Below, piece after piece: positions 10,809 to 64,000 of a stretch of 64,000 nucleotides of DNA. The notes under the pieces are model-generated. The model was not told the origin of the DNA and searched no databases. It saw only the letters and a list, made by a program, of their open reading frames with translations. Position 1 is the stretch's first letter. Each line of letters begins with the position of its first letter. Source of the stretch: Eukaryota sp. GEM-RC1. Taxonomy: Eukaryota. Both the position numbers and the translations under genes were made by a program. The DNA lies in assembly GCA_040285855.1 (NCBI GenBank), contig JAUFOQ010000010.1, positions 1,736,001-1,800,000 on the forward strand. The letters run 5' to 3'.

Positions 10809-11493
10809 TAGGACTGTGCAGGTTTGGGTTTCAAAAAGTTTCAAACCCCAAACCTGGTTTAGGTTTGGTTTGGTTTTCCAAAAATGGGTTTAGGTTCCGG
10901 TAGGTTTTTAAGTTTTAGGTTTAGGTTCAGCTAGGTTTTGTAAAAAAGGTTTAGGTTCAAACCTAGTAAACCCGATATGTATTATGAATTAAAAATACAC
11001 TGTAGTTTAGTGGAACACTGTCAAAATAAAGTTGTTCTTACGGTAGTACTAGATATGCTTTATTATTAATGCTCGAGTATCACAAACAACTACTAGTGGT
11101 GCTACTTTTCTTTTTCAAAAAATCGTCTCCAATCCTTAAGACTGACAAGTGCTTGGATACTTTCATGGGACAGAAAAGCTCTATATTCTGTAACTGTGCT
11201 GTGTCTTCACTCATCACTTCAATTTCAGAAGAGTTCCCGTCAATAGAAGCGTTAAGATCGTTCATATATAATGTAAGAATCAGAGGGTTATTGAAATTAA
11301 ATGTGTTTCATTTTCCTACAGTTCTGAAGCTAAAGGTTTAGGTTTGGTTTTATTGAAAAGGGTTTAGGTTTGGTTTGGTTTTATTAAAAAAGGCTTAGGT
11401 TTGGTTTGGTTTTTTTTAAAAAGGTTTAGGTTCAGCTAGGTTTAGAAAAAAAAGGTTTGGTTTGAAACCTAAACCCGAACCTGCACAGTCCTA
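10809..11493. mobile_element. 685-bp hAT-like MITE with GGTTT/GGTTTA subterminal repeats
   Basis: TIR taggactgtgcaggtt(t/c)gggttt / aaacccgaacctgcacagtccta; 8-bp TSD atacaaat at 10801-10808 and 11494-11501. Confidence 0.9.
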
Positions 11494-37871: not shown

Positions 37872-38149
37872 TACATTTATACAAGTTTTCAAATCGTTTT
37901 ATGGGAAAATGAAATCCATTGGGGAGTTTTTGGCTCATCTTAACGTGTTTGATCATTTTAATCTTATGTTTGTACCAATGTTGTTGTTATTTTGTCAAGA
38001 CCCATGAAGATAAATGATGGTGACAGCACTTTTTGAGACGCGCTCGTTATAGTACTCATGTACTGTAGTAAACCATATAGATTTCACATATAGTAAAAGT
38101 GAAATCTAGAATACACTACTGTTGAATTCATTTGGGGTGCATACATTTG

Positions 38150-41100
38150 GACCAGAGCGCTGGTCCAAAGAAGCAATGGAGCAATGATGAGTGTCGAGAA
38201 GGTCATCTGCATCAGTTTGCTTTGACAAACCACAGTCAATGACAAATTTGACCCCATCAATAGTCAAGGAAGATTCTGCTATATTGGTAGCAATGACAAT
38301 TTTAAATTGTTTTTTCGCTGGTTTAGCCACAGCTGCATCTTGTTGGACTGAATCCAGACTTGAATACAACGGATACACACCTGGCTTCTCAGAAGAAGCT
38401 GGGATGTATAGACCACCAGATCGACTGTTTTTCTGACTCTCAAACTCATTCTCAATAGTATTACTGAGAGTTGTAATTTCTGGACTTCCAGGAAGAAACA
38501 CGAGCAAAGTAAATCCTGTACATTCTGGTTCAAACAGGAAAAGTTTCTGAGACAGGGAGTAATGACAGAGACATAGTCGGGCTAACGCTTTGAAATTGAT
38601 ACTTTTATATGAAAGAGGATTACTGTATTGAGTGAAATAGTCGTAGTATGAGTTCACATTGAAGACAAAATAAGTGTAAATATCAATAAAATGATCGTTG
38701 AAAACCTGTTGAAGTGTAGGTTCAAAAATCGGAGTTATCACAAGTTTTGATATTAAGGGACTATAATGAAATTCATTTTGACGAACAAAATTCACATCAA
38801 GGACAATCAGTGGATTGGTTCTTCCAGCTGCATGGATAGTATAGGAGGGTTCGGTATCTAAATAATTTCCTTGTGTAAGGTAATTAAAACAAGGATTAGG
38901 TTTGTCCATAGTTGCCGAACAGATTACCACTCTCAATTTTGAATCAGTTTGGGAAATTATTCTCATTTGTGCTAATAAAATGTCAATGTCACATTTTCTT
39001 TCATGAACTTCATCCACCATGATAGTTGCAAATCGAGACAGATTGCTATTGTTTGTCAGAAATTTAGAAGTGAAGGCTGCGGTTTGAACTTCGATAAATC
39101 TTGGTGAATGTACTGGAATGTTCGTATTCTTGTTGCCTGTTCGGTATCCAGACAGAGGAAAATCACTATGACATAAATCATTGATAAAATCGGAGAGTTT
39201 TGTGGCTGGTAGAACTCTAGGTTGACACACAATGATTGGTTTCAAAGTAAACATAACCACAACAACACCAGTTAAGACAGATTTCCCGGAACCTGTTTGA
39301 CCAGAAACAATAAACGGAATAATATTGTTGTCTTTGACATGATTTTGACCAATAACACGAAACAATTGATAAAAAGTGTCTTTTCCTTCATTAACAAATG
39401 CAATACGGCAGTTACGTGCTTTTGAAATCAACTGAAAGCAAGAAAACACCAAGTCGAAGTAGGCGTCATTACTGTCAACAGTATGATTCCACTGTTCATT
39501 TAGTGTCAAAATTTCAAGAATTTGTGTTAGTAAATCACTTTCGCGGACATAAGATTTCAAATGTGCTAATTTAGAGCATACTTTAGGAAAATCAATTGAT
39601 GTAAATTCCGACGTTGGTTCCTCTGGTGAAGCCACAGTTGCAGTGCTTGGGAAACTGTAAACATAGCGGGCAGGTCGTTTCCATTGAAGGTAATGATCTA
39701 ACAACATCTTGTAATAACTATGATTGGGCGCCAAACATGACAATGAGACTAAGTATTCCATTGCCTGTAAACAGAAAGACATTAAAGAGAGATCTTTTTT
39801 TTCATTTGAATGGTAATGGGCACAAAATGACAGTTGGAACATGAGCATGCTCATAGTTTCAATTTTGTTTTCGAAAAAATCTTGATATACAGTAAACTGA
39901 TGTCGGTAAACTTCTTTCCGTTCTACAACTTGTTTAGTTTCAGGGTCTTTAATTTCGACAATGCGGCTTTCTTCATCTGTATCCACAAAAGTATAGTGCT
40001 CGAGAAAATGACAAAAGTTAAAAAATCTTGAAAGTAATTGAGAAGTGTATGACGAATCTCTGATATTATTAAAATCATCCCACAAAATACTAAGAGAAGT
40101 TTGATTATATAGATTATCAAATTCGTCATCATTTAAAGGATCGTCTGTAGGATCGTCAGTATGTTCAAAATCAGAATCTTTGACATCAACATCAGGTTTT
40201 TTGGGGGCTTCTTTTCAATTAATTCAATAACATGAGCAATATCAAAGATTAACATTTTGAGTTTATAACCAGCTTTTGACTTTGCGAACTTTTCAATCAC
40301 TTTTTGGTTTTCTTTGAACATTTCCAAAGTAAAATGATTATTCGTACGATCATACACTTGAAGGTTGAGTTTCTTCTCATCCACAACAAATTGCAGATGG
40401 AGCATTGTTAATAAAATGTCCAGCATAACCTCAGGACGTACCAAAACTTTAGGGTTGATATTTTGATACAAGGATGTGATACTTAATGAAACATCACTAA
40501 GTCTAAAAGTTTGGAAGGGACAATCATTATAACTGTGACCAGGAAGAAGGCAGAAGAGACATGGAGCAATAAAAAGGCAAAACGATTCACGAAAAGAAGG
40601 TTGTTTTTGAGGACAATGGGGAGAAATCTCATATTTGAATCCAAGAGGCATAATCGGTAAACTCACAGTAGATTCTCGATTAGGGTCACACAATTGACAC
40701 CAATATTTATGGAGGGATTCCAACGCTCCATCATAACTGAGCAAGTAATGATTAGCATCTTGTTGACATTCAATCAACTCCGATTCATAGTGTTTGGCCA
40801 TGATGTAATTTTCAATTCTCCAATTACTTGGCGTGTCACCAGGTTTACAACACTCTTGCATAATTTGGGCCAGGAACGAGCGTCGTGATTCATTGTCTGG
40901 ATTGGGAATGACATCTGGAGCGAGATCAGTTAAGTTTTCGGATTCATCTATAAAAACATGATTCATACATGAACAAACTTGGAAACCAGGTGTTCTTCCA
41001 GATCTTAGCACTGGATGGGCAAAAGTTTCATGTGGAATACGGCAGTAACGATGCAATATGCCCATGTGGTATTTAGTTCTTTGATTATGTTTCTTTTGTT

Positions 41101-41836
41101 TTAGCTGAGTTTCTTCTGTTGGCGGTTCTTCTGTTAGAGTTTCTTCTGTTAGAGTTTCTTCTGTTAGAGTTTCTTCTGTTGGCAGTTCTTCTGGTAGCGT
41201 TTCTGGCAGAGATGGAGGAGGCGATGGTGACACAGAAGTTCTTCTGGGTCTCTTTACTTCTGGCGATGGTAAACGATTATGGGGACCTGGATTCTGTTCA
41301 ACGTCTCCATCGATAGAGAGATCACGTTTCCATGATGTTGACGAGAGGATAGAGCACAGAATAAGCGGAGACGACATCTTAGGACGAGGAGGGAAGCACG
41401 TATCCACACATTTCTTCAACCCACCATCCATATCCCGTGACCGTGCTATGGAAACAGTGTTTGGGTGATGTGATGAAGCAATGGCGGATGTGGACGAGAG
41501 GATAGAGCACAGAATAAGAGGAGACGACATCTTAGGACGAGGAGGGAAGCACGTATCCACACATTTCTTCAACCCACCATCCATATCCCGTGACCGTGCT
41601 ATGGAAACAGTGTTTGGATGATGAGATGAAGCAATGGCGGATGTGGACGAGAGGATAGAGCACAGAATAAGAGGAGACGACATCTTAGGACGAGGAGGGA
41701 AGCACGTATCCACACATTTCTTCAACCCACCATCCATATCCCGTGACCGTGCTATGGAAACAGTGTTTGGATGATGAGATGAAGCAATGGCGGATGTGGA
41801 CGAGGCGAGGGGTGTTAGCAGTATAATAGAAGACAT
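38150..41836 (-). pseudogene. Truncated inverted copy of the 2A-DEAH helicase polyprotein gene (ends inside motif VI, DQRSG|)
   Basis: Mirror of 48659-52346; homology stops at 38150 before RAGR. Confidence 0.85.
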
Positions 41837-41999
41837 TGGAGTGGGAAAATTATGGAGCTGTAAACAACTATACTGTACAGATAGAACAAGGAATTCTCAT
41901 GACTTCACAAATACATTTACAAGGATCGTTTTGTGTACACTTGTATTTTCTCTTAGATACAAGTAGAACAATTTATTACTGTGCGTTTATTCTAAATAT

Positions 42000-43697
42000 T
42001 TATTGTAAAGAATGATGTTGATAAAGTAAAACATAACCATTTAAAGAAATCTCAGTTAATACTGTCTGTTCGTCTACACCTTTCTTGCAATCACTATTGG
42101 TATCATGTAACCACCAAGAACCTTCTTTTTCCTTTGCATATGTCACACAGTGACCGTCAGCAAGGGAATCGTAATGACAGATCGCAGACAGCAGTCTGTA
42201 TGTGTATTTTTCTTCAACACTACTTTTGGTCTTGGTTGACACTTTGGCGGTTGAGGTTCGACTGGTACTTCTTTCCCAATCACCACCTCTAACAAAATGC
42301 TGACTCCCACACTTTCTTTCATTTTCATTAGAAATGTCAAAGACAGACAATTCTTCTGATGTTGGATAATGAGACAATGTGTAAATGTCCTTAAGTGGCA
42401 GTTGTGAGTTGATTTCATTGGTAGGGGAAAACTCAATCGATTCTGAACCCATCTGTCCTTCAGAAGACAGGAATAGATAGAGTGATAGATTTGAAGAAAT
42501 AGTAACTGGTTGAGGATGTCCAGTCAGTCTAATGATAAGAGCTTTTGGAAGAGAAGCAAAAGTTTCAGTAATTTCTGATTTTTGTTCAGGACAAGTAGCA
42601 CAAATTATTTCTTTTCGAAAAGGTAGATGAGCTTGCAACAATGATTCGAGATCGGTTGGTCTAGAAGGATACCGCCTTTGGATACTTTCCTGGTTAATAT
42701 CCAAGGCGAAGTGAATTTTAGATGTCGGATTAGTCCCACACCAAGAACATTTTGTTGTTGTTTTAATACAGAAACAAAATGCATTAACAGCACAAGAATG
42801 CTTTAATTTTTGAGTTATCAACAATTGATCTAAATCTTGCTGAAGTGATGATTTGACATCTAACTGAGTCTGAACTTTTTTTGGTGATGGTTTCTCATCT
42901 AAATCATATCCATAATATTGGAAGTCTGTAGTATCAGTTTCTTCTGATTCAGACTGTGGTTCAAATTTTTGACAAAGAGTGTAATTCATCATTTGATGAA
43001 GATGGCAAGATGGTGCGGAATTCCTTGTCAAGTGTTTTTAAAAGTTTGGCAAGGAAATTGAAAGGATCGTGTTGACCCGCCGCAAAACAGGATAAATGTC
43101 AGCGATTTGCGCACGAACACCTTCAATATCTTTCGTATAAAAACAATTGAAGAGAGGAGTAGCAGAAGTATCAAAATCTAGTTCTATGAAATGATTTACA
43201 TTGAGTTCGAAGAAACGTTCAATGTGACGTATAATAAAATGGATAACTGAATAGACATAACAACAATCAGATGAAGTAGAAATTGAAGGAGTAGTAGTTT
43301 TAATAGGAATAGCAAGAGCCTCGTTAACTGTTTTAGTCAAACTGGAAAGAGAAGAAGGGGATACAATCAGGTTATGAGATGAGAGGGTGGTTTTTACGAT
43401 GAAAGATATCACGTCGCTAATACACTGTGTATCTTCAAGGGGAGTGATTGCACGAAGATTAGAGGATGATGTTAAGCTGAAAAGGAACTTTGTTTGTGCA
43501 ACGTCTGATGTTACAAGAACGAGATTGAAATGGTATTGAATATGTCCATTATACACTACGACAATGAAGAAGTCGCCCGCAGTGTCTTGGACGATGACAA
43601 TTTCAACATCTGTAACTTCCGCAGGAATGTCATTTACGAAGTCTAGTTGCATCTGTTGTTTGGGAAAACGTTGGCGGACACGGAATGATGTTGACAT
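42000..43697 (-). CDS. USP-like (peptidase C19) deubiquitinase, inverted copy, frameshifted
   Basis: Mirror of 46798-48495; His box YRLLSAICHYDSLADGHCVTYAKEKEGSWWLHD. Confidence 0.75.
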
Positions 43698-46600
43698 GTT
43701 TGTGCAGAGAGGAAAATTTATGTCCTAGTCTATTATTACAACAAAGATTCCATTTTTGACTTTCAATCAATACAATAGGGTGGGTTTATTCATTCCGTGA
43801 TGAATTTGTCATTCACGAGGATTAATGTTTTACTATAACTAACTAATACAGGATTAATAAAGGAACCAGTGAAGTAGAAATTGAAGGAGTAGTAGTTTTA
43901 ACAGAAATAGCAAGAGCCTCGTTAACTGTTTCAGTTAGTCTGTTGCTGGGTTGAGTACAAACAAAGGATGGCCCAGAACAATGAGCCTTAACTTTATTAA
44001 TTATCTTGTGACTGGTTCTTTTCATGATGAGAACTACAGATTTACTTGAAGATACTAAAACAATTTTTTAGTAACGAAAAGTTTAAATCAAAAACATTCT
44101 GTATGAAGAGTTTCGACAACGTCGTTGTCTATATTCAACGTTCCAATGGCAAGTTTTTGATTCATGTGAAAATCTGGATCACCATATTGGAGAGCAAATC
44201 TGTGGACCAAGTTTTGTTCACTTCGTTCTTTTCTTGAATACTGGGTAAGGCGTCTACGTCTAAAAATTTCTCTTCATAGAAACAAGCATTGAAAGTTTTT
44301 GGAACTGAATCATTTGTAATTAAAACTTTTTGTAACTCAAATACAACTGCACTTGTTGATAAACAGTAGATTTTCAACCTCCACTGCCGTAGCTTTGATG
44401 ATACAGCCTCCCTATCCTTATCTAACTCAACTCGAGACTGACTCCATTGCAGGGTTTCGGGTTCAGTTGAGGTGACAGGTTTGACAGTAGTGAACTAACA
44501 AATTCGGATTCTTCAATAGTTGAGAGTTGTTTTAGCAAAGGAAACATACATTAGAATCTTCCATATCCACGAAACGTGAAACTAAAGATCTTAGTTCATT
44601 TAAATATCGCTCTAGTTTTTTCAAAAAAACTAATTTAGATAAACAAATCGTAAAAAGACAGAAAAGTTGTACGAGAGCAACGAATGAACGACATTCTCCA
44701 CTGTTATTCTCAGAACTCATGACATCATTCCATTGTTTTGAACGTGTGTTTTACAATTTTATACACGTTTTTTCTTTCTTGAAAATCATTATCACATAAA
44801 TCATTGATAAAATCGGAGAGTTTTGTGGCTGGTAGAACTATGTGCTTGGGAAACTGTAAACATAGCGGGCAGGTCGTTTCCATTGAAGGTAATGATCCAA
44901 CAACGCCGTGTAATGACTATGATTGGACGCCAAACATGACAATGAGACTAAGTATTCCATTGCCTGGAAACAGAAAGACATTAAAGAGAGATCTTTTTTT
45001 CATTTGAATGGTAATGGAGTTGATTTCTCCCGCAGTCTTGGATTGAGAAGTCCCAGTATGAAAGGCCTTATTACTTTATGCAAAATTCTGTCTATTAACA
45101 GGACAGTGATTGATCTGGATATCTCCCAACTTAATTAATATTGAAAGTCACATTTTCTGTTTTTCACCAACGAATTTTGTTCCCAAAGAAGCGGGGGTGG
45201 CAGGTTTTGAAGAGGTGATGTATATGACATAAAGACCATTTACATCTGTTGATCTACTCTACTTCTGAATTGTATAGAGGAACGAAGATACTAGTAAACC
45301 TGCCACCCCCGCTTCTTTGGGAACAAAATTCGTTGGTGAAAACAGAAAATGTGACTTTCAATATCAATTAAGTTGGGAGATATCCAGATCAATCACTGTC
45401 CTGTTAATAGACAGAATTTTGCATAAAGTAATAAGGCCTTTCATACTGGGACTTCTCAATCCAAGACTGCGGGAGAAATCAACTCCATTACCATTCAAAT
45501 GAAAAAAAAGATCTCTTTAATGTCTTTCTGTTTCCAGGCAATGGAATACTTAGTCTCATTGTCATGTTTGGCGTCCAATCATAGTCATTACACGGCGTTG
45601 TTAGATCATTACCTTCAATGGAAACGACCTGCCCGCTATGTTTACAGTTTCCCAAGCACATAGTTCTACCAGCCACAAAACTCTCCGATTTTATCAATGA
45701 TTTATGTGATAATGATTTTCAAGAAAGAAAAAACGTGTATAAAATTGTAAAACACACGTTCAAAACAATGGAATGATGTCATGAGTTCTGAGAATAACAG
45801 TGGAGAATGTCGTTCATTCGTTGCTCTCGTACAACTTTTCTGTCTTTTACGATTTGTTTATCTAAATTAGTTTTTGAAAAACTAGAGCGATATTTAAATG
45901 AACTAAGATCTTTAGTTTCACGTTTCGTGGATATGGAAGATTCTAATGTATGTTTCCCTTTGCCAAAACAACTCTCAACCATTGAAGAATCCGAATTTGT
46001 TAGTTCACTACTGTCAAACCTGTCACCTCAACTGAACCCGAAACCCTGCAATGGAGTCAGTCTCGAGTTGAGTTAGATAAGGATAGGGAGGCTGTATCAT
46101 CAAAGCTACGGCAGTGGAGGTTGAAAATCTACTGTTTATCAACAAGTGCAGTTGTATTTGAGTTACAAAAGTTTTAATTACAACTGATTCAGTTCCAAAA
46201 ACTTTCAAGGCTTGTTTCTATGAAGAGAAATTTTTAGACGTAGACGCCTTACCCAGTATTCAAGAAAAGAACGAAGTGAACAAAACTTGGTCCACAGATT
46301 TGCTCTCCAATATGGTGATCCAGATTTTCACATGAATCAAAAACTTGCCATTGAACGTTGAATATAGACAACGACGTTGTCGAAACTCTTCATACAGAAT
46401 GTTTTTGATTTAAACTTTTCGTTACTAAAAAATTGTTTTAGTATCTTCAAGTAAATCTGTAGTTCTCATCATGAAAAGAACCAGTCACAAGATAATTAAT
46501 AAAGTTAAGGCTCATTGTTCTGGGCCATCCTTTGTTTGTACTCAACCCAGCAACAGACTAACTGAAACAGTTAACGAGGCTCTTGCTATTTCTGTTAAAA

Positions 46601-46797
46601 CTACTACTCCTTCAATTTCTACTTCACTGGTTCCTTTATTAATCCTGTATTAGTTAGTTATAGTAAAACATTAATCCTCGTGAATGACAAATTCATCACG
46701 GAATGAATAAACCCACCCTATTGTATTGATTGAAAGTCAAAATGGAATCTTTGTTGTAATAATAGACTAGGACATAAATTTTCCTCTCTGCACAAAC

Positions 46798-48495
46798 ATG
46801 TCAACATCATTCCGTGTCCGCCAACGTTTTCCCAAACAACAGATGCAACTAGACTTCGTAAATGACATTCCTGCGGAAGTTACAGATGTTGAAATTGTCA
46901 TCGTCCAAGACACTGCGGGCGACTTCTTCATTGTCGTAGTGTATAATGGACATATTCAATACCACTTCAATCTCGTTCTTGTAACATCAGACGTTGCACA
47001 AACAAAGTTCCTTTTCAGCTTAACATCATCCTCTAATCTTCGTGCAATCACTCCCCTTGAAGATACACAGTGTATTAGCGACGTGATATCTTTCATCGTA
47101 AAAACCACCCTCTCATCTCATAACCTGATTGTATCCCCTTCTTCTCTTCCAGTTTGACTAAAACAGTTAACGAGGCTCTTGCTATTCCTGTTAAAACTAC
47201 TACTCCTTCAATTTCTACTTCATCTGATTGTTGTTATGTCTATTCAGTTATCCATTTTATTATACGTCACATTGAACGTTTCTTCGAACTCAATGTAAAT
47301 CATTTCATAGAACTAGATTTTGATACTTCTGCTACTCCTCTCTTCAATTGTTTTTATACGAAAGATATTGAAGGTGTTCGTGCGCAAATCGCTGACATTT
47401 ATCCTGTTTTTGCGGCGGGTCAACACGATCCTTTCAATTTCCTTGCCAAACTTTTTAAAAACACTTGACAAGGAATTCCGCACCATCTTGCCATCTTCAT
47501 CAAATGATGAATTACACTCTTTGTCAAAAATTTGAACCACAGTCTGAATCAGAAGAAACTGATACTACAGACTTCCAATATTATGGATATGATTTAGATG
47601 AGAAACCATCACCAAAAAAAGTTCAGACTCAGTTAGATGTCAAATCATCACTTCAGCAAGATTTAGATCAATTGTTGATAACTCAAAAATTAAAGCATTC
47701 TTGTGCTGTTAATGCATTTTGTTTCTGTATTAAAACAACAACAAAATGTTCTTGGTGTGGGACTAATCCGACATCTAAAATTCACTTCGCCTTGGATATT
47801 AACCAGGAAAGTATCCAAAGGCGGTATCCTTCTAGACCAACCGATCTCGAATCATTGTTGCAAGCTCATCTACCTTTTCGAAAAGAAATAATTTGTGCTA
47901 CTTGTCCTGAACAAAAATCAGAAATTACTGAAACTTTTGCTTCTCTTCCAAAAGCTCTTATCATTAGACTGACTGGACATCCTCAACCAGTTACTATTTC
48001 TTCAAATCTATCACTCTATCTATTCCTGTCTTCTGAAGGACAGATGGGTTCAGAATCGATTGAGTTTTCCCCTACCAATGAAATCAACTCACAACTGCCA
48101 CTTAAGGACATTTACACATTGTCTCATTATCCAACATCAGAAGAATTGTCTGTCTTTGACATTTCTAATGAACATGAAAGAAAGTGTGGGAGTCAGCATT
48201 TTGTTAGAGGTAGTGATTGGGAAAGAAGTACCAGTCGAACCTCAACCGCCAAAGTGTCAACCAAGACCAAAAGTAGTGTTGAAGAAAAATACACATACAG
48301 ACTGCTGTCTGCGATCTGTCATTACGATTCCCTTGCTGACGGTCACTGTGTGACATATGCAAAGGAAAAGAAGGTTCTTGGTGGTTACATGATACCAATA
48401 GTGATTGCAAGAAAGGTGTAGACGAACAGACAGTATTAACTGAGATTTCTTTAAATGGTTATGTTTTACTTTATCAACATCATTCTTTACAATAA
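46798..48495 (+). CDS. USP-like (peptidase C19) deubiquitinase, ~565 codons after correcting 1-nt shifts
   Basis: Cys box DCCYVYSVIHFI, GQHDPFNFL, CxxC pairs (CSWC, CATC), LPKALIIRL, His box HY...GHCVTY..W..D, final GYVLLY. Confidence 0.75.
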
Positions 48496-48658
48496 ATATT
48501 TAGAATAAACGCACAGTAATAAATTGTTCTACTTGTATCTAAGAGAAAATACAAGTGTACACAAAACGATCCTTGTAAATGTATTTGTGAAGTCATGAGA
48601 ATTCCTTGTTCTATCTGTACAGTATAGTTGTTTACAGCTCCATAATTTTCCCACTCCA

Positions 48659-51600
48659 ATGTCTTCTATTATACTGCTAACACCCCTCGCCTCGTCCACA
48701 TCCGCCATTGCTTCATCTCATCATCCAAACACTGTTTCCATAGCACGGTCACGGGATATGGATGGTGGGTTGAAGAAATGTGTGGATACGTGCTTCCCTC
48801 CTCGTCCTAAGATGTCGTCTCCTCTTATTCTGTGCTCTATCCTCTCGTCCACATCCGCCATTGCTTCATCTCATCATCCAAACACTGTTTCCATAGCACG
48901 GTCACGGGATATGGATGGTGGGTTGAAGAAATGTGTGGATACGTGCTTCCCTCCTCGTCCTAAGATGTCGTCTCCTCTTATTCTGTGCTCTATCCTCTCG
49001 TCCACATCCGCCATTGCTTCATCACATCACCCAAACACTGTTTCCATAGCACGGTCACGGGATATGGATGGTGGGTTGAAGAAATGTGTGGATACGTGCT
49101 TCCCTCCTCGTCCTAAGATGTCGTCTCCGCTTATTCTGTGCTCTATCCTCTCGTCAACATCATGGAAACGTGATCTCTCTATCGATGGAGACGTTGAACA
49201 GAATCCAGGTCCCCATAATCGTTTACCATCGCCAGAAGTAAAGAGACCCAGAAGAACTTCTGTGTCACCATCGCCTCCTCCATCTCTGCCAGAAACGCTA
49301 CCAGAAGAACTGCCAACAGAAGAAACTCTAACAGAAGAAACTCTAACAGAAGAAACTCTAACAGAAGAACCGCCAACAGAAGAAACTCAGCTAAAACAAA
49401 AGAAACATAATCAAAGAACTAAATACCACATGGGCATATTGCATCGTTACTGCCGTATTCCACATGAAACTTTTGCCCATCCAGTGCTAAGATCTGGAAG
49501 AACACCTGGTTTCCAAGTTTGTTCATGTATGAATCATGTTTTTATAGATGAATCCGAAAACTTAACTGATCTCGCTCCAGATGTCATTCCCAATCCAGAC
49601 AATGAATCACGACGCTCGTTCCTGGCCCAAATTATGCAAGAGTGTTGTAAACCTGGTGACACGCCAAGTAATTGGAGAATTGAAAATTACATCATGGCCA
49701 AACACTATGAATCGGAGTTGATTGAATGTCAACAAGATGCTAATCATTACTTGCTCAGTTATGATGGAGCGTTGGAATCCCTCCATAAATATTGGTGTCA
49801 ATTGTGTGACCCTAATCGAGAATCTACTGTGAGTTTACCGATTATGCCTCTTGGATTCAAATATGAGATGCCTCCCCATTGTCCTCAAAAACAACCTTCT
49901 TTTCGTGAATCGTTTTGCCTTTTTATTGCTCCATGTCTCTTCTGCCTTCTTCCTGGTCACAGTTATAATGATTGTCCCTTCCAAACTTTTAGACTTAGTG
50001 ATGTTTCATTAAGTATCACATCCTTGTATCAAAATATCAACCCTAAAGTTTTGGTACGTCCTGAGGTTATGCTGGACATTTTATTAACAATGCTCCATCT
50101 GCAATTTGTTGTGGATGAGAAGAAACTCAACCTTCAAGTGTATGATCGTACGAATAATCATTTTACTTTGGAAATGTTCAAAGAAAACCAAAAAGTGATT
50201 GAAAAGTTCGCAAAGTCAAAAGCTGGTTATAAACTCAAAATGTTAATCTTTGATATTGCTCATGTTATTGAATTAATTGAAAAAGAAGCCCCCAAAAAAC
50301 CTGATGTTGATGTCAAAGATTCTGATTTTGAACATACTGACGATCCTACAGACGATCCTTTAAATGATGACGAATTTGATAATCTATATAATCAAACTTC
50401 TCTTAGTATTTTGTGGGATGATTTTAATAATATCAGAGATTCGTCATACACTTCTCAATTACTTTCAAGATTTTTTAACTTTTGTCATTTTCTCGAGCAC
50501 TATACTTTTGTGGATACAGATGAAGAAAGCCGCATTGTCGAAATTAAAGACCCTGAAACTAAACAAGTTGTAGAACGGAAAGAAGTTTACCGACATCAGT
50601 TTACTGTATATCAAGATTTTTTCGAAAACAAAATTGAAACTATGAGTATGCTCATGTTCCAACTGTCATTTTGTGCCCATTACCATTCAAATGAAAAAAA
50701 AGATCTCTCTTTAATGTCTTTCTGTTTACAGGCAATGGAATACTTAGTCTCATTGTCATGTTTGGCGCCCAATCATAGTTATTACAAGATGTTGTTAGAT
50801 CATTACCTTCAATGGAAACGACCTGCCCGCTATGTTTACAGTTTCCCAAGCACTGCAACTGTGGCTTCACCAGAGGAACCAACGTCGGAATTTACATCAA
50901 TTGATTTTCCTAAAGTATGCTCTAAATTAGCACATTTGAAATCTTATGTCCGCGAAAGTGATTTACTAACACAAATTCTTGAAATTTTGACACTAAATGA
51001 ACAGTGGAATCATACTGTTGACAGTAATGACGCCTACTTCGACTTGGTGTTTTCTTGCTTTCAGTTGATTTCAAAAGCACGTAACTGCCGTATTGCATTT
51101 GTTAATGAAGGAAAAGACACTTTTTATCAATTGTTTCGTGTTATTGGTCAAAATCATGTCAAAGACAACAATATTATTCCGTTTATTGTTTCTGGTCAAA
51201 CAGGTTCCGGGAAATCTGTCTTAACTGGTGTTGTTGTGGTTATGGTTACTTTGAAACCAATCATTGTGTGTCAACCTAGAGTTCTACCAGCCACAAAACT
51301 CTCCGATTTTATCAATGATTTATGTCATAGTGATTTTCCTCTGTCTGGATACCGAACAGGCAACAAGAATACGAACATTCCAGTACATTCACCAAGATTT
51401 ATCGAAGTTCAAACCGCAGCCTTCACTTCTAAATTTCTGACAAACAATAGCAATCTGTCTCGATTTGCAACTATCATGGTGGATGAAGTTCATGAAAGAA
51501 AATGTGACATTGACATTTTATTAGCACAAATGAGAATAATTTCCCAAACTGATTCAAAATTGAGAGTGGTAATCTGTTCGGCAACTATGGACAAACCTAA

Positions 51601-53684
51601 TCCTTGTTTTAATTACCTTACACAAGGAAATTATTTAGATACCGAACCCTCCTATACTATCCATGCAGCTGGAAGAACCAATCCACTGATTGTCCTTGAT
51701 GTGAATTTTGTTCGTCAAAATGAATTTCATTATAGTCCCTTAATATCAAAACTTGTGATAACTCCGATTTTTGAACCTACACTTCAACAGGTTTTCAACG
51801 ATCATTTTATTGATATTTACACTTATTTTGTCTTCAATGTGAACTCATACTACGACTATTTCACTCAATACAGTAATCCTCTTTCATATAAAAGTATCAA
51901 TTTCAAAGCGTTAGCCCGACTATGTCTCTGTTATTACTCCCTGTCTCAGAAACTTTTCCTGTTTGAACCAGAATGTACAGGATTTACTTTGCTCGTGTTT
52001 CTTCCTGGAAGTCCAGAAATTACAACTCTCAGTAATACTATTGAGAATGAGTTTGAGAGTCAGAAAAAAAGTCGATCTGGTGGTCTATACATCCCAGCTT
52101 CTTCTGAGAAGCCAGGTGTGTATCCGTTGTATTCAAGTCTGGATTCAGTCCAACAAGATGCAGCTGTGGCTAAACCAGCGAAAAAACAATTTAAAATTGT
52201 CATTGCTACCAATATAGCAGAATCTTCCTTGACTATTGATGGGGTCCAATTTGTCATTGACTGTGGTTTGTCAAAGCAAACTGATGCAGATGACCTTCTC
52301 GACACTCATCATTGCTCCATTGCTTCTTTGGACCAGCGCTCTGGTCGTGCTGGAAGAAATTCTCCTGGACTTTCGTTACGTCTTGTGCAGACAAACTTAT
52401 ATCCGGATGGAACTTTGAGATTGCATTATGATAAACCAGAAATTCTAACTTGTTCGTTGATTGAGCCATTGTTAACAATCAAACAGATCGCTGAAAATCC
52501 TCAATTTTTAATCAGTAATCTTCCAAATCCCCCTGAATTTTTTTATCAGTCAACTGCCTGATGTTTCTTCTAGTGACAACATCATATCTTCGGTTGATGT
52601 TCTTTTCCGCACTAATGTTCTTTCAAGAAACCAACTAAATTCTCCCCTTACTTATCTCGGAAAGATTTGCACCAATGCCAATATTTCATTCTACAACTTC
52701 AAGTTTTTATTTTTCTGTTTAACAAACAATTACCTGTGTCCTGGATTAATTCTTCTTGCGGGTATCAATTCTATGTCGTTCATTCGTTGCTCTCGAACAA
52801 CTTTTATGTCATTTTACGATTTGTATACCTTTTCACAATCGATTCCTTTACTCAAACAACTCTCTACTATTGAAGAATCTAAAGTTGTACGTTCAGACAT
52901 GTTTTTCAAATTATCCTTGGTTCATTACATTTTATGTGGCGAATTTATTAAAAATCTGGATATTGTCCCAACACGTAATCAAACCCTTCATGATCAAGCC
53001 CTTAAGAATTTATCTAAATTAGTTTTTCTGAAAAAACTAGAGCGATATTTAAATGAATTAAGATCTTTAATTTCACGTTTCGTGGATATGGAAGATTCTA
53101 ATGCTCATCTCAAAAATCAATTAAATGTATTGGAAGGCATTGCTCTAAAGCTTGTCAATTTCATATCAAGTCCTTCTGAAGTTACACTCAATAAGTTTCA
53201 AAATGAATCAACAATCTTCTCTTCTCTTTTTGAACCTCCAAATTCAACGACGTCTCTCTTTCAAGCCATTGTGGCTTCTTATCCCAATAAGTCATTCCAT
53301 TCAACTGTAGTAGACAATTCATTCTCAGTTAGGTTGAAGTTGGAAGGTTATGTCAATGGAGAAAAATTTAACAACTTTATAAAGAAATTGTTTGATGAAC
53401 AAAATATTGTCAAATCTTCCAAATCTCTAAAAGTTAATGACAGTGGTGATGACAGTACTCGTTCAGAGACATTATGTTCAAAAGTTAAAATTACTTCAGA
53501 TCTAGCTCCAGGTGAAACCCAAAGCACTGTTGTTATGTTGCATTCAGAGAATACAACTGAAATTGAAAATCTACTGTTTGTCAACAAGTGCCGTGGAACT
53601 CTTGATTCATTAAAAATTTTTCTCTTACGTTCCATCTTGATTGGCATAGATTCATTATCAATTTACGATTCAATTTATCAATGA
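48659..53684 (+). CDS. 2A-containing polyprotein: repeat leader - 2A - P/E/T-rich linker - CCHC knuckle - DEAH/RHA-family RNA helicase with HA2-like region
   Basis: GQTGSGKS, CQPRVLPA, DEVHER, SAT, LVFLPG, ATNIAESSLTIDGV, QRSGRAGR; a shift in the T run at ~52538-52544 continues into LTYLGK (HA2-like) and ORF 52773..53684; knuckle CLFCLLPGHSYNDC at 49934-49975. Confidence 0.88.
48691..49160 (+). repeat. 3 x 153-bp tandem repeat (51 aa) in the helicase leader, each with a long hairpin
   Basis: Units start 48691, 48844, 48997; ttcatctcatcatcca pairs with tggatggtgggttgaa around actgt-ttccatagc-acggt. Confidence 0.95.
49163..49213 (+). other. 2A/StopGo ribosomal skipping peptide WKRDLSIDGDVEQNPG|P (mirror copy at 41282-41332, minus strand)
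   Basis: Exact D(V/I)ExNPGP consensus preceded by RDLxxDG. Confidence 0.88.
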
Positions 53685-56717: not shown

Positions 56718-58234
56718 TTAAAGTCTTTTTGATTCCAAAAGCACTTGCAGTGGTTTTAATTCTTCGTTTTCCTGTTTTTTCCCTAAAACGTCATTTTCGT
56801 CTTTTGTCTTTGACGATTTGTTTTCAAATTTTGTTGTTGAAACATCAATTACATTTTGTTCTGTCATCAAATCAGGTTGTACACTCTGAAGTAGATCATA
56901 CATAACAAGACATAGATTTTTTCTTGATCTGTTAGTGTATAATTTTGTCTGATTTTGTTCCTGACGTGCATCAACCATTAATCCTTGTAAAATTAAAGTA
57001 ACATTCAAACAGACAATCCATCCACAGATAAGAGACGATGTTGACTGTGCAAAAGGTATATAGTAGTCCACCTTATACTCTGGTAATCTTGCAAACAGAT
57101 TTGTTTCCCCACATCCATAAACAGTTCTAAAAGGATTAACGATTAATTCAGTGGTTAATGAGTAATCCAAAGAATCATAAATATTGAATAATAAAACATT
57201 TGCTTCATTTAGAAACAATTCAATAAGAATCCAATGACCAGATCCTGCATCACCAGGAACATGTTCTTTCACCAAACATAATGGGGCAAGAATTCTTTTC
57301 CTGATTTTAGTGTATCGACAATAGCCTTACCAGAATGTAAGGCATAGCATATTGGATCACCTACCAACTGTTGAGTTTCTTGAGATTGCAGGAACTTGTA
57401 CCTACTTGATTTAAATTTTTGGAATGCAAGCATCACAATGAAATCAAGTTCAGAACTCAACAAGAGTTGTGTTTTACCTTCTCTATCATCCTTTGTCAAC
57501 ATTTTTTCAATATCACAAAATCCAAATTTTAATTTTGAATTTATGTAAAACTGATCACTGATTAAATCTACAGAAAGAAACAACGGGTTACGTTGTTTTT
57601 TGCGTTTCATAGGTTTAGATAAATTAGCATTATCAATGACCGGAACAGGAACTATTTCAGATGGTTCAGAGAAAATAGAATGAATATGATTGATTGCGAA
57701 GTTATCAATACGACGTTTTGGTGAAGGAAAAACGACTTGAGATGGAGTATCGTCAATGCGAGTATTGTCACAATCATGGAAAAGATTAGGAGATTGAGGC
57801 TGAGGAGGAGGAGGAGAAAGAGCAATTGTAACTCGTTTAACGTCTTTGAGTAGATCCTTGAGATGATTTAGAGTTGAAGTTGTTGAAGGAAGTGGAAGAG
57901 ATATGTCACGCTTCTCATAAGAACCATCAAAAGGAAAGAGATGAACAGTTTCTAGATCAACATCTAGCACAATGGCAACGGCTCATTTGTAGTTGAGGCA
58001 AAAATCCATGGTACCCTTTTTAAGATCATCTGGTAAGTCAGATGTTGACACTTCCGTTATGTGGATGGATTTAGTTCTCCATGAATTGTATGTTCCATAA
58101 GGAAGAAGAACAAGTGACAAGTTAACTGCATGCTTATCAGCAAGCTTTACAACAAGTTTCATATATGTTTTGATGGTACGGGAACGACTTTCTTGTTCAG
58201 AAGTATTTCTGAGTTTGAAGATTGAGTAGGACAT
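56718..58234 (-). CDS. Ulp1-like (peptidase C48) SUMO/ubiquitin-like protease, frameshifted
   Basis: ORFs 57983..58234, 57269..57970, 56718..57275; catalytic order GHWILI...IYDSL...AQ(STSSL)ICGWIVC. Confidence 0.75.
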
Positions 58235-58348
58235 GGGAAATTCTGATATAGACTTTATTACAGATTTCGTTTTTTAACACGTGAATTCACACACACATGT
58301 CCATTACAGTCTGTGTGGGATTTCATTTTCCTTCCTCCTACAGTATAA

Positions 58349-61300
58349 ATGTCGTTTGTTCTGCATCCAAACAGATGTTGTCCGCCATCCTGTCCTTATC
58401 TGACTCAACTTGTGACTGTTTCCATTGCACGGTTTCGGGCTCAGTTGAGTTTAGATAAGGACAGTTCTTTCCCCTCCACTGCCTCCACTGCTGTTGCTTC
58501 TCCCTCTACTGCCGTTGCTTTCCCCACTGCCGTTGCTTCGATAATGCCGCCATCCTGTCCTTATCTGACTCAACTTGTGACTGTTTCCATTGCACGGTTT
58601 CGGGCTCAGTTGAGTTTAGATAAGGACAGTTCTTTCCCTCCACTGCCTCCACTGCTGTTGCTTCTCCCTCTACTGCCGTTGCTGTAATGACTGCCGTTGC
58701 TTCGATAATGCCGCCATCCTGTCCTTATCTGACTCAACTTGTGACTGTTTCCATTGCACGGTTTCGGGCTCAGTTGAGTTTAGATAAGGACAGTTCATTC
58801 TGTGTTTTATCAACACATACATTTGTTGCCATGAAGTACTCGTCTCCCCTGTTTATCCCTTCCCATCCTCCGTTCCCAAAAGACCTCACCGCTGATGGTG
58901 ATATTGAATCCAATCCAGGACCCGTAACTCAAGAAGCCATAAACTCAGTTTATCCTCATCAATGGGTTGATGACGAAGCGATAGTGGAGTACTGTAAAGT
59001 GATATTTCAAGAAGCAGAGTTAGACTTTGAAAGCATGTTTATCCATCCGACCACATTGCTTCAATATATTGTTTCACCAGATGCCCCGCTAGATCAATGG
59101 TTGTTGACGAAACTTGAGAAAAATCAAAGAACAAACTCCAAATATCTCTTTGTTCCCCTTAGTGATACCATGACTAGAAATACTAATTATTCCAGAGAAG
59201 GTGTCACTGGTTATCATTGGGGTTTAGCCATTATAGACTGTTCTGAAAAGGAATGGATCTTCATTGATCCAATGTTAACTAGTGAAGATATGAGTAAGTC
59301 TATGGTAAAATCAGCTGTAGACATATTATCCGAAGTACTTGTGCCATGGGGGTATGATTTCCGTTATGTGCATGTGACTAAAAGTCAGTCTGCTAACGAC
59401 TGTGGAGTTTATGTCATTGCGTATATTCATAAATATGTTGAACTTTTTAAAACACTCATGTATGTTCCGTCTCTGATGTATATGGAGTCTGATTTGGTCC
59501 AAGTGAACAATGAACTTCAAGCAGACATATTTCGTGAAAAAATTCGGGATGTATTGTCTCAACAAAGGACACTTTATCTACAACAACGTCAAACCACAGT
59601 AGCTCCTATTGTACCATCGTTACCCATTCAACCTCCTGCCGGTAAAGAACATCCAACCACTTCAATTCCTCTCACAGGTTCACGTCTTGCTAGCACTAAA
59701 ACATCTACTGGTTTTAGCACTAAAAAAAGTAAGCCCAAAATTTCTGATATTCCATCACCACGAGGTTCACCTTTAATTCAACGAAATAAATTTAGAACTA
59801 CCAGCTCCCTTGTTTCAACTGGTGACACTCCAATACGAAAGACTCACCGCCGTATGTCCACATTGGAATCATCTGAAGTACCACCATCTGAATTGCCTCC
59901 ATCACCATCTGAAGTACCACCATCTGAACTACCACCAAAATCACAGGCCTCCATTATGTCGTATCCATCGCCAATTCAAGAAGAAATCCAAAAAATGGAA
60001 GTAAATCTACACACTGAGCCTATAGAAGAAGAAATACAAATTCAAGACTTTCTTAAATCCCCTCTACTTTGGAACAATCTACCAACTTTTTGTTTAATTC
60101 ATGTTCAAAGTGATTTTGCCAAAAAGAAAGAATTATTGGCAGAAATGTTCAACTTGTTCAAGAAGATGATGATTACATTGAAACTGTTGAAGGTGAAGCT
60201 GAAGATCAATTAGAAGTTAAACGTGATTCTTCTGTTGATCCGATTGTATCAATTTCCATCCAGATCATTGATCACAATGAGTTTAATGAAAAGCATTTAT
60301 TTTCTCATGGTAATTTTGATACTACAAACTTGGATTTGTGTACTTTACATATTTCAGATAGTGAATCCAGTATGCTTAAAAACTTCATTTCCTTCATTAC
60401 TCAACATTGTCCACGATTGTTTGTGAGTTATGACTTTCACTTAGATACATTTCCCTTTCTTGTATCACGTTGTCAAGTCCTCAAAATCAATACAACGTTT
60501 ACTTTTCCAGAATTTAAACCCTACATTCCCTTTTGGTTCAACAAATGGTGTAAGGAAACAACTTTTGGTCCGTTTTTTAGTCTTGATTTGAATGCTGTAC
60601 TGAAGAATTTTTATGTCTTTACTGGTGGCCGTTTTTTGGAAAATGTTGTTCAAATTTTTCTTGAAATGAATAATTTTTCTAAAAATGAAACTGTCAAACG
60701 CTTGGAAGAACTTAATCATGACTCTGATCCTGATGAAGTTCAATTGGTCAATAATGTCCAAAACTTGCATGGCATAATTGACAGTATTAATGTTTTAGTT
60801 CCAGACAATCCCAAAGTGAAGGTCGATAAGATTAAAAAGAAATTTGTAAGAAATTTGGAGAAAGTAAATGAACTTTGGGCCAAGGAATCGACAAGACCGC
60901 TATTGTTGATCAACTCAATTCAACAATTACCTCTGATTGAGTACTTGTTGGCTGACCTATTGGATCCCAAAAAACAAACATTACGTTCAAGGTCACCAAT
61001 GAAAGTGGTTAAGAAACGACTAGACAATGTTGTATCCAAAGCGAAGGTTAAATTTATTGAATCTCGTGTTAGGAGAGCTCATCAAGTACGAGTCCGTGGT
61101 ACTCTCTTTTTGAAACATTTTTTTGTTCATAATTTTCACCATTCTGGTATTTTAGGTTACATTCAGAAGTTACTGCCTGCTACTGTTCCAAATGTAACTG
61201 TTAAGCAAGAAATGAATTCTGATACAGATGAGTCAACTGAAGAAGAAACAGATGTACATTCAGAGTCTATCAATGATACTCCACCTATTAAATTAGAAAA

Positions 61301-63875
61301 TATTGAAGATGCGAGAGATGAACCTGAACCTGACCTTTGGACTAAAATTCAAACTACTAAAATTGAATTGCCAGACTGGAAGAATTTTTTTACGTTGAAA
61401 TCAATGGAACAAGTGTTATCTATGATGACGATTAGGGACGGAAGACTTGTAAACAATCAGAATCATATTAGGACTGTACAAGAATCGTTAACAAACATAA
61501 TTTCTAACACAAATGATGGCTCAACTCAAAATCAGTTTGCTCAACATTTCTTGATGCATTACATTCCTCGTTTAGAACTAGCTGCTGATTCCGTTGGACT
61601 TGATAGGATTGTGTTTCCCAGTAGTCATCGTTTATCTCGTATATTGCATTACATGGCTACTGAAATTATAACAAATTACAAGACTAACATGAGTGAACAC
61701 TTTCACGAATATGTTTTTCAGGTATTAAATTTGGTTACCCTGAAAAAAGATAGACTTAACAAGCTTACTGATAAGAATCAACGACAAGAGTTGTGTACAA
61801 AGCTTAATGAAGTCAGACAGTTGATCATTAATGGGGAAATTTCAAAAATTAATTTTCAAGATGTTGAAGTGTTTCCTGATCCCAATTCTAGACTGAGTTT
61901 ACTATTTTTTAACTATTTGTTTACTTTTTTTGAAGGTAAAATGGAGAAAACAATCTATTATGCTGAAAAAGTAGATCCTTTGAAATTCTTAAGTCATGCA
62001 GTGTATTTGAAACGTCTTGTTGAGGACTCTTGTCCTGGTGTTACTGCCAATAATCCTTTTCCTCTAACAAAATCACTGATTCCTAATCATATCAGATTGG
62101 ATACTACATGGTTTAAAGAAGTTTATGCATCAGAAATGAAAGGTAGCTTTGATGACGTTCGAAAAGATATTTGGCACTCAGTTTTGAAACCAAAGTGTCT
62201 TCCAAAGTCATTGTCTCATGACTTCAAATACAGTTCTATTTCTACAGATGGAGTTAGCTGTAGTTTAATGATGATGCGGAAAGATCTGCTTGATGGGAGA
62301 GGAAATCCTCATAAGAAGGTGAAAGCAGTTGACTACACAGCTACTGAAAGGTACATTGATTCTTTGAGTTCCACAGAAATTCAAAACTTAAATTTGAAAT
62401 CCAAAAGAATTGTTGCTATTGATCCTAATCAGCATGATTTGATGTATTGTGCTTCTTTAAAATCTGAGGAGGAAAAGAAAATCGAAGGTTTCGATACATC
62501 AGCCAATCTCAGAAGAAGAAAGATTTCTCCAAAATCATCAAAGAAAAAAGGAAGCTTGAAAAAATTAAAAAAAGAATTGAAGGATTGGAAAGACGCACCC
62601 ACTATTGACAAACCATCAACTGTCAAGTTGAAAAATCGTGATGATTGGAAAGTATTCAGATACACTGCTGGGGAGCGCAAAGCAGATATGAACAAGTCTC
62701 CATGGAAAAGAAAAAAACAAAGAAGGAAAGAAAAAGAGCTAAGAGAAAGAAGAGGAAGCTGGAGAAGAAAATAAGACGATATAATCTCCACCGTTTGACT
62801 GAATCTGAACGGTTACAACAATACTCTACCCAATTTATTCACATTCCAGATGGCAGACGCATTGACATAAATGGGCAACAAATTTTAGATCAATGGGGCT
62901 CTAACTCGCCAGGTAGTAAATCTTGTGATTTGACTCTGTATTCTGCTTTTGTTCTTGGTAAAGAAATTACCTGTTCTTTACTACGATCACCCACTACTGA
63001 TCAAAGAACTACAGAAGGAATTTACGAAGAAAAGTGGTTTAGGAGGAATCGTCTCACACAATATTCAAGAAAGGAACGAAGTGAGAAAAACATGCTTCAC
63101 AGATTTGCTCTCCAGTTTGGAAACCCAGATGAAGTCGTTGTTGGGTATGGAGACTGGAACGACACTGCTTTTCGTCGAAGAAGAGGTAAAGCATCGACTG
63201 TAAAAGGTGCTTCAATTCGGAAATTACTGAGAAAATTTGGATTTAAAGTGTTCCTAGTTGATGAATTTAAGACCAGCAAATGTTGCTCTGCATGTGTTTC
63301 CAGAAACGACGAAGGTATCTGTTCCAATCCTGAAAGGATAAAAGTCACTGATCCTCATTGGAAGAAGAAGTTACAGAAGGAAGAGAAAAGAATTAAAAAA
63401 GGAAATTATGGAACACAATCTATTAGAAGAAAATGAAAATCGAAATTTTACCGAAGAATGGACAGACCAGTTGCAATTTTCGAAAGACAGATTAAAGAAC
63501 AACAAAGTCTCACCATGGGGCTTAGTTGAATGTGCTAAATGTCATGTCCTCTGGAATAGAGACTTCAATTCTGCTATTAATATTTACAATATTGTAAATG
63601 GAACCATTCAAGGTCAAGGTAGACCTGCCATCCTCGAGAGACCAAAATCTCAAACAACACCTGTCGTGGATGGCGGGAATACAGATCAGATTCCTAAGAA
63701 AAAGACTGTGAGTAAGGGTAAGGGTAAAGCAAAACGTCCTCTAACAAAAGTCAGAGGTCCTAACAAGTGTCGTATATGTTCTCAACCTGGACATAACAAA
63801 ACAACTTGTCCAAATAAGCCTAAGAAAGATGTACCCAAGGACTCACACGTAAACCAGAAAGATCAGGAATCTTGA
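58349..63875 (+). CDS. Polyprotein (~1,840 codons): repeat leader - 2A - Ulp1 (C48) protease - linker - Fanzor1-type RuvC nuclease - CCHC knuckle; four 1-nt shifts
   Basis: Overlapping ORFs 58349..58687, 58687..60213, frame open 60114..62774, 62645..63436, 63408..63875; Ulp1 YHWGLAIID...FIDPM...QSANDCGVYV; Fanzor motifs listed in the next feature. Confidence 0.75.
58382..58796 (+). repeat. 3 x ~165-bp tandem repeat in the Fanzor leader, each with a ~20-bp hairpin stem
   Basis: Units start 58382, 58547, 58711; ctgtccttatctgactcaact pairs with agttgagtttagataaggacag around actgt-ttccattgc-acggt. Confidence 0.95.
58873..58923 (+). other. 2A/StopGo ribosomal skipping peptide FPKDLTADGDIESNPG|P
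   Basis: Exact D(V/I)ExNPGP consensus, in frame immediately before the Ulp1 domain. Confidence 0.88.
60999..63640 (+). CDS. Fz1: Fanzor1 (eukaryotic TnpB homolog) nuclease core within the polyprotein
   Basis: MKVVKKRL...V.RAH....TLFLK; FPLTKSLIPNHIRLDT; ISTDGVSCS; RuvC-I VAIDPN (D at 62421); FRYT; GYGDW; rearranged RuvC-II VDEFKTSKCCSAC (E at 63263); CAKC..WNRDFNSAINI (D at 63561); GRPAILER. Confidence 0.9.
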
Positions 63876-63943
63876 ATCTATGAAGTTAGCTCGTCTTAAA
63901 AGACTTTGCGAATGAGGACATTTATTTGTTCAAACTGTGAGTT

Positions 63944-63979
63944 TTGCTCATGAGTTTGCTTACGAGCTTGCTCATGAGA
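63944..63979. repeat. Three 12-bp tandem units (ttgctcatgagt / ttgcttacgagc / ttgctcatgaga) containing the palindrome ctcatgag, 3' of the Fanzor ORF
   Basis: Read directly from the sequence. Confidence 0.7.
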
Positions 63980-64000
63980 TCATGAAAATGTGAAGGGTTA

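Follow-up and report, generated by a model that had tools for sequence, protein, structure and literature searches.

Tandem hairpins in 2A-terminated leaders of mobile-element-like genes from Eukaryota sp. GEM-RC1: a candidate translation-control cassette

Why should two genes open with a translated leader that holds three tandem hairpins and ends in a 2A motif? The question is raised by a 64,000-nt stretch of Eukaryota sp. GEM-RC1 DNA, hereafter the window: AT-rich, eukaryote-type DNA with LRR genes and very long genes, in which mobile-element-like genes (UCH protease, DEAH helicase, Ulp1 protease, exonuclease-like domain and Fanzor1-like nuclease) stand in a run from about position 46000. 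Leader A precedes the helicase gene and leader B a Ulp1-Fanzor fusion gene (Table 1), and these are two unrelated mobile-element genes. An earlier note on this DNA had proposed a structured RNA element embedded in a translated leader that the 2A removes. The present analysis supports that proposal as a prediction: judged from sequence, the cassette appears to be real, RNA-level and lineage-restricted.

Table 1. Positions of the leader features and downstream genes in the window
Feature	Position	Strand	Remarks
Leader A	48659..49213	+	ATG, three in-frame 153-nt units, then 2A
Hairpin A1	48700..48787	+	about 88 nt; tip 48731-48755, loop AUAGCAC
Hairpin A2	48853-48940	+	
Hairpin A3	49006-49093	+	weakened by two synonymous changes
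CCGCCAT in leader A	48702, 48855, 49008	+	predicted to be paired
2A of leader A	49163-49213	+	W at -16
CCHC-like knuckle and DEAH/RHA-type helicase	49214..52561	+	downstream of leader A 2A
Gap upstream of leader B	58235..58348		114 nt between leader B ATG and divergent minus-strand frame starting at 58234
Leader B	58349..58923	+	ATG, three hairpin repeats, SSPL, 2A (repeat and ORF analysis)
CCGCCAT in leader B	58382..58388; also 58547, 58711	+	immediately 5' of the stems
Hairpin B1	58390..58464	+	75 nt, 28 predicted pairs; base 41 nt past A of first ATG
Hairpin B2	58555..58629	+	identical to B1
Hairpin B3	58719..58793	+	identical to B1
Shared tip in leader B	58415..58439; also 58580-58604, 58744-58768	+	A.G mismatch, CUG/CGG helix, pyrimidine internal loop, CC/GG, 7-nt loop AUUGCAC
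Starts of 25-nt core	58415/58580/58744 (B); 48731/48884/49037 (A)		
B spacer	58465..58554	+	pyrimidine-rich, 77% C+T, 9/18-nt sub-repeats, in-frame ATG 58544
2A/StopGo motif of leader B	58873..58923	+	F at -16
Ulp1 (peptidase C48) region	58924..60213	+	downstream of leader B 2A; Pfam PF02902, E 2.3e-06
PolB-exonuclease-like domain and Fanzor1-like nuclease	60372..63875	+	three overlapping pieces; CCHC knuckle at end
Inverted duplicate of leader A	41282..41836	-	identical; within large palindrome centred near 45250
Variant C	44381..44471	+	truncated B-type hairpin, loop AUUGCAG; six substitutions in 47 nt, no pair broken
Variant C mirror copy	46027-46117	-	

Architecture of the leaders and their common tip

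As first described, each leader carries three repeats (TRF periods 153 and 164) followed by SSPL and a 2A with the D(V/I)ExNPGP motif. Every repeat holds one hairpin of 75-90 nt with 28-36 predicted pairs, and stem energies across the leader hairpins range from -34 to -43 kcal/mol. The base of the first stem lies 38 or 41 nt past the first ATG in leader A, in which every unit has an ATG 38-41 nt ahead of its own stem, and 41 nt past it in leader B, whose start is ATG 58349, upstream of the 58382 given previously. CCGCCAT accompanies all six stems in two codon phases, which bears out the reported difference in phase. The gap upstream of the leader B ATG leaves little room for a 5' UTR; very short 5' UTRs are also a feature of Giardia.

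In the window copy, the second unit of leader B is 164 nt long and thus one base short (in the C-run 58636-58638), so that the frame of the first ATG differs from that of the 2A and meets a stop at 58687. The paralogues P0013 and P0020 read through three leader-B units in frame, and the frameshift in the window may be either a sequencing error in the C-run or decay. The inverted duplicate of leader A adds no independent evidence. Separately, TACAGTATA occurs on the forward strand at 48618 and 58339, 41 and 10 nt before the leader ATGs; within the window it is found only upstream of both leader ATGs and in the inverted duplicate, and it is a possible promoter or initiator motif.

The outer stems had been described as unrelated in sequence and yet paired, and both parts of this statement hold. 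On the sense strand, the hairpins fold with z-scores of -4.55 (B), -4.92 (A1) and -2.12 (A3), compared with -3.17 (B) and -0.90 (A) on the opposite strand. Alignment of the A and B arms is no better than chance, the scores being reached by 33% and 93% of 2000 shuffles; MAFFT gave no alignment of the 3' arms, and the spacers do not align beyond chance, unlike the block preceding the 2A. Over their first 150 nt, the two leaders reach folding energies of -44.3 and -40.9 kcal/mol. The corresponding segments at 14 other starts gave -12.4 to -38.3, in a comparison where the leaders are also richer in G+C and one of the controls was placed 2 nt off.

Across these unrelated arms, the 25-nt cores of A and B agree at 22 positions, the best of 30 shuffles reaching 19. 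Allowing up to three mismatches, the core pattern matches the window 11 times and 100 shuffles not once; the matches are the six leader copies, three in the inverted duplicate, variant C and its mirror. Six of the seven comparable third positions are identical between the A and B cores, including two rare CGG codons: as the earlier note had pointed out, CGG is used for Arg twice in each core, and it accounts for only 3 of 136 Arg codons in the five downstream ORFs. The same note saw the core as almost invariant and the third helicase-leader copy as weakened. The latter is confirmed (A3, -34.1 vs -42.7 kcal/mol); the former is true of A and B, not of the wider family, as family D (see below) keeps only part of the core. 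The predicted tip is therefore common to A and B, partly found in D and not universal to the cassette.

How the tip folds had to be revised. Whole-leader partition functions assign the previously proposed ACUGU/ACGGU stem (5 bp, with a 9-nt loop and 9-nt bulge) a probability of 0.00 in A and 0.08-0.11 in B, and a UCC/GGG pairing, taken as plain secondary structure, has probability 0. The CC/GG pairs closing a 7-nt loop reach 0.95-0.97 in A and 0.30-0.38 in B, whose tip is thus only loosely folded. Modelling favours one imperfect helix that ends in CC/GG and the loop AU(U/A)GCA(C/G). In this register, A, B and C have five pairs and an A.G mismatch in common, and one position reads U-A in A, U.U in B and A-U in C. 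The earlier register costs variant C two of five pairs, and its stem is also broken by the commonest paralogue variant, which fits the CC/GG fold. The six substitutions (in 47 bases) that set variant C apart from B break no pair, and C folds at -16.7 vs -11.7; of 5000 random variants with six changes, 2.8% are as stable. The change that C shows at the U-A/A-U position is common rather than decay, because it is the TDS variant, which 11 of 21 B units carry.

A single tip on unrelated arms could mean that selection maintains it for a ligand whose specificity can be swapped, or that a patch was recently spread by recombination. By eye, the 7-nt loop fits the consensus of a tRNA-Ala anticodon arm (NGC anticodon and A37), with just two firm closing pairs where a 5-bp stem is expected, and ARAGORN found no tRNA. 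Readings as IRE, SECIS, IRE1, BHB, MITE or kissing loop were dropped by eye against consensus sequences.

Peptide and RNA among the paralogues

The comparison covered 76 proteins, those of the window itself included; after exclusion of two virus-type matches, 74 remained, 39 of which bear a 2A. For 36 of these 39, the leader could be assigned to one of seven repeat families: eight to A, 13 to B, eight to D, two to E, three to F and one each to G and H. The repeat peptides differ between families, with one to seven copies per leader and variable spacer lengths. Two further 2A proteins look like what is left of a D and an F leader after truncation, and near-identical Ulp1 domains are headed by different leaders. 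P0073, a helicase-family fragment, carries an eighth, unrepeated leader ahead of a W-type 2A.

The 2A is the constant part. Its D(V/I)ExNPGP core is in frame with the downstream ORF in both leaders and in the 39 proteins, and position -16 is F in 28 and W in 11 of the 39; the core is class-A-like, GD(V/I)E, and yet has the -16 register of class B. Active 2As are described as having W, or tolerated F, at this position (PMC12338488), and the motif likely cuts the leader away from the downstream protein. The same source reports that eukaryotic 2As tend toward ORF starts and calls their purpose unclear (PMC12338488).

Is it the peptide that is being kept? The earlier note had conceded that the peptide TVSIARxR might be under selection, a reservation that is largely removed by the replacement of TVS by TDS in 11 of 21 B units and by the existence of seven peptide families, five of which lack the motif. 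The used frame is free of stops and the other two contain 1-5 stops per unit, although the leaders were seen through annotated proteins, which favours open frames. The families, the stops per frame, F or W at -16 and the fit of family D together suggest that 2A, open frame and RNA fold are kept and the peptide is left free, the fold being kept at least in A, B and C and probably also in D. Selection at the level of the peptide thus appears unlikely.

Families D-H are known from protein only, and tests of their RNA have to run through back-translation. Family D is colinear with B and differs at 16 of 29 residues; it shares the arms with B and lacks most of the tip. It fits 27 of 34 stem positions of the B register (random, 23.1 +/- 2.0), a borderline result reached by 4.2% of 1000 random controls and by 8.3% of 300 with free codon choice, and its best apex falls at the same place as that of B, with a predicted loop CCNGCNU. 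For E-H, protein-only, codon-optimised folding gave no significant hairpin signal (reached by 47, 32, 12 and 23 of 60 shuffles), in a test of such low power that the real hairpin A is itself reached by 6 of 60. The 20 amino-acid variants within A and B units are divided between unpaired sites (10, four of which could close a mismatch by inspection), changes that keep a pair (4) and changes that break one (6). The excess of pair-breaking over pair-keeping variants, together with the weakened A3, speaks against a tight constraint on the fold.

Outside this lineage, nothing comparable was recovered. Rfam gave no match at the gathering threshold, and the strict core pattern was absent from the viral contigs and prokaryote genomes scanned. 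Relaxed patterns matched 7 metagenome and 121 viral loci (23 of 64 parts of the viral set scanned) once each. No 2A lay within 900 nt of any of the 128, and these loci were judged to be chance. Protein-led scans for outside homologues found none, and protein searches returned only Eukaryota sp. GEM-RC1 proteins and two viral-type polyproteins that match via the 2A. Every close relative bearing a name is labelled Eukaryota sp. GEM-RC1, which by likeness of name may be Skoliomonas sp. GEMRC, a free-living metamonad from a group described as sister to Fornicata (PMC11316075).

A possible role in translation and its competitors

Our preferred reading, held tentatively and somewhat short of an even chance, is that the leader is a translation-control cassette whose first stem lies 38-41 nt past the AUG and whose tip is read by a protein. 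The ribosome would start at the AUG ahead of the hairpins, which on the mRNA would set the frequency of starting or proceeding. A host RNA-binding protein, or the knuckle or helicase of the element itself, would read the common tip, and the 2A would remove the leader peptide, leaving the helicase or the Ulp1-Fanzor protein with a clean N terminus. With the AUG first and the 2A last, an RNA element could exist while the protein stays unaltered. The effect could be that of an enhancer, like the alphavirus downstream loop, or of a brake tuned by copy numbers of one to seven. The computational basis consists of the repeats, the sense-strand folding potential, the nucleotide-level conservation of the tip, the interchangeable peptides and the intact 2A motif in every leader; we infer transcription, folding in the cell, 2A skipping, the effect on translation with its sign, and the reader of the tip.

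Translation control is favoured because the first stem falls within the active range of the alphavirus loops, which naturally lie 27-31 nt after the AUG, are active at 25-50 nt and peak at 34-40 nt, according to PMC4872096. Like these loops, the leaders place a predicted stable hairpin in the coding region at a set distance past the AUG, and the +38/+41 and +41 stems of the two leaders lie within 25-50 nt. The spacing in B units 2 and 3, where an AUG stands just 11 nt ahead of the stem, is a misfit and speaks against this reading, since an 11-nt spacing is reported to lower translation (PMC4872096). In the same study, a -50 stem in the 5' UTR abolished scanning and a -30 stem was also tested (PMC4872096); a stem as strong as those of the leaders, if placed in the 5' UTR, would block scanning. 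Unlike alphavirus loops, which are single and need no conserved tip, the leaders belong to a nuclear DNA element and combine one to seven tandem copies, longer stems and a conserved tip with a natural 2A. Engineered vectors place a 2A after the alphavirus capsid enhancer.

Two further systems offer partial precedents. In L1Tc and APE-type non-LTR elements, D(V/I)ExNPGP likewise stands near the start of the element ORF; here, the 2A follows a hairpin array and not an HDV ribozyme in the 5' UTR, the genes encode a Fanzor1 fusion and a DEAH helicase, and no reverse transcriptase was seen in the window. The Giardiavirus IRES, in which initiation RNA structures are reported to reach 264 nt into the ORF (PMC2757703), resembles the leaders, as read here, in placing a structured initiation signal inside an ORF and in its related host group; it differs in being viral, uncapped and non-repetitive and in its dependence on an extended, structured 5' UTR. 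The separate parts have precedents: 2As at the N terminus of eukaryotic element proteins, the L1Tc 5' ribozyme with 2A and in-ORF initiation signals of alphaviruses and Giardiavirus. In the literature searched, PMC12846837 and PMC13405545 among it, arrays of tandem hairpins with exchangeable tips ahead of the 2A of Fanzor or helicase genes are not described, and the 2A lists that go with such papers might include these peptides.

The purpose of such a leader is probably that coding sequence can host an RNA control signal while the protein is left unchanged, which would give N-terminal eukaryotic 2As a concrete, testable reason: an RNA signal in translated sequence that is free to vary. If true, the cassette would be a first candidate for translational limiting or boosting of the nuclease by a Fanzor-carrying element. 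It would also be nature's counterpart of expression designs that combine an enhancer with a 2A, and its seven natural variants could be compared. One could go further, in a speculation we consider improbable, and regard the arrays with their family-specific tips as address codes that the element's knuckle-bearing DEAH helicase reads, switching on the Fanzor nuclease and its own translation, with copy number as a rheostat and the 2A erasing the trace from the protein.

Alternatively, the hairpins might be processed. A small-RNA precursor (a polycistron of the pri-miRNA kind that a Dicer-type enzyme would cut, either limiting the element itself or yielding guides) or a dsRNA decoy for RNA-silencing proteins, with translation incidental, is the competitor that fares best, although we think it rather unlikely. 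Tandem hairpins of 75-90 nt with 28-36 pairs between unstructured, pyrimidine-rich spacers look the part, seven of the eight matches in Rfam, all of them weak (E 1.6-9) and well short of the thresholds, are to miRNA precursors, and a miRNA from a viral coding region has been reported in Giardia (PMC7719678). On such a model, however, A and B would not be expected to have the tip rather than the arms in common; within the window, the arms have no antisense target; and cutting would destroy the very mRNA that the 2A serves.

It is also conceivable, if unlikely, that the array is an RNP tag, i.e. tandem sites for the element's own protein or a host RRM protein that serve cis-assembly, localisation, stability or suppression of premature polyadenylation without directly affecting initiation. 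One tip on unrelated stems, arrayed like operators, would suit this, as would the CCHC-type knuckles in both genes, matched below cut-off at the Fanzor end (zf-CCHC_2, E 0.005) and in the helicase paralogue P0066 (zf-CCHC, E 0.04). The loops of B (AUUGCAC) and C (AUUGCAG) are moreover the U1A/U2B'' heptamers of U1 stem-loop II and U2 stem-loop IV, with a C-G closing pair. Those sites have loops of 10-11 nt, and U1A is reported to need at least 10 nt (PMC4114683), against 7 nt in the favoured fold here; the heptamer has one change in A (position 3) and two or more in D (positions 1-2 included), and a tag would have no need to stand directly after the AUG.

Less probable again is a neutral or DNA-level by-product, in which inverted repeats arose by template switching, were amplified by slippage, shuffled among paralogues and tolerated since the 2A discards the peptide, or in which hairpins or sites act on DNA. 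Free variation in copy number and spacer length, the mixing of leaders with different Ulp1 bodies, the six stem-breaking variants and the rearranged fragments in the window are consistent with it, and B as DNA folds equally on both strands (-17.9 / -17.5). It does not account for two unrelated stems that end in one and the same tip, nor for the U-A/A-U swap, the frame-keeping units and the sense-strand bias of A (-17.1 vs -10.0 as DNA).

Self-cleavage, one of the functions suggested initially, is highly improbable: the core is compact and conserved and L1Tc has a 5' ribozyme in an element that also carries a 2A (PMC3185411), but neither Rfam nor a search of both strands for hammerhead, HDV, pistol, twister and hairpin core motifs gave a match, the proposed pseudoknot lacks support, and cleavage past the AUG would separate the start codon from the gene. 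Just as improbable is selection of the TVSIARxR repeat itself, for example as a signal or small effector; although A and B are alike in peptide and open frame, the A3 changes are synonymous and a sea urchin signal peptide ahead of a 2A is known (PMC12846837), the TDS variant, the five families without the motif and the conserved synonymous sites and rare CGG codons all argue against it.

Downstream genes and other features of the window

Both genes belong to multicopy families, as indicated by their many relatives in Eukaryota sp. GEM-RC1. The Fanzor1-like region matches the Fanzor chain 8gkh of S. punctatus (E 2.7e-14 and 8e-05), a similarity to a solved Fanzor1 that includes the RuvC region. 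Known Fanzor1 proteins (S. punctatus, G. theta, P. parasitica) match the downstream protein in their solved chains; here, in contrast, Ulp1 and an exonuclease-like domain stand ahead of the nuclease in one fusion, which opens with a hairpin leader. Paralogues likewise have Ulp1 fused to the exonuclease-like/Fanzor1-like part, and the fusion (58924-63875, +), multicopy among relatives, is an unusual Fanzor architecture. Just past the Fanzor stop, 63876-64000 (+) is the place expected for an omega-RNA; it contains a 12-nt tandem repeat (63938-63978) and is cut by the window edge. The helicase continues into 52773-53684 in the paralogue P0051.

Around leader A, 38100-52350 is an inverted duplication with nearly identical arms of about 7 kb each and its centre near 45250. 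It may have arisen by genuine rearrangement or be an artefact of fold-back assembly. The middle of the palindrome (44300-46200) is a patchwork of short pieces from neighbouring element genes. Upstream of leader B, the divergent, interrupted frame at 56718-58234 (-) shows a protease-like HW motif by eye, and its pieces have no Pfam match.

Further upstream, about 15 kb of consecutive same-strand ORFs (12705-28291, -) look like pieces of one very large, beta-rich surface protein; the one piece searched had no Pfam match. Degenerate 31-nt tandem repeats of the GGTTTAGG type at 10856-11464 are reminiscent of interstitial telomere-like sequence. Finally, an intact-looking DDE_3 (Tc1/IS630-type) transposase lies at 31273-32409 (+) among duplicated LRR-gene blocks.
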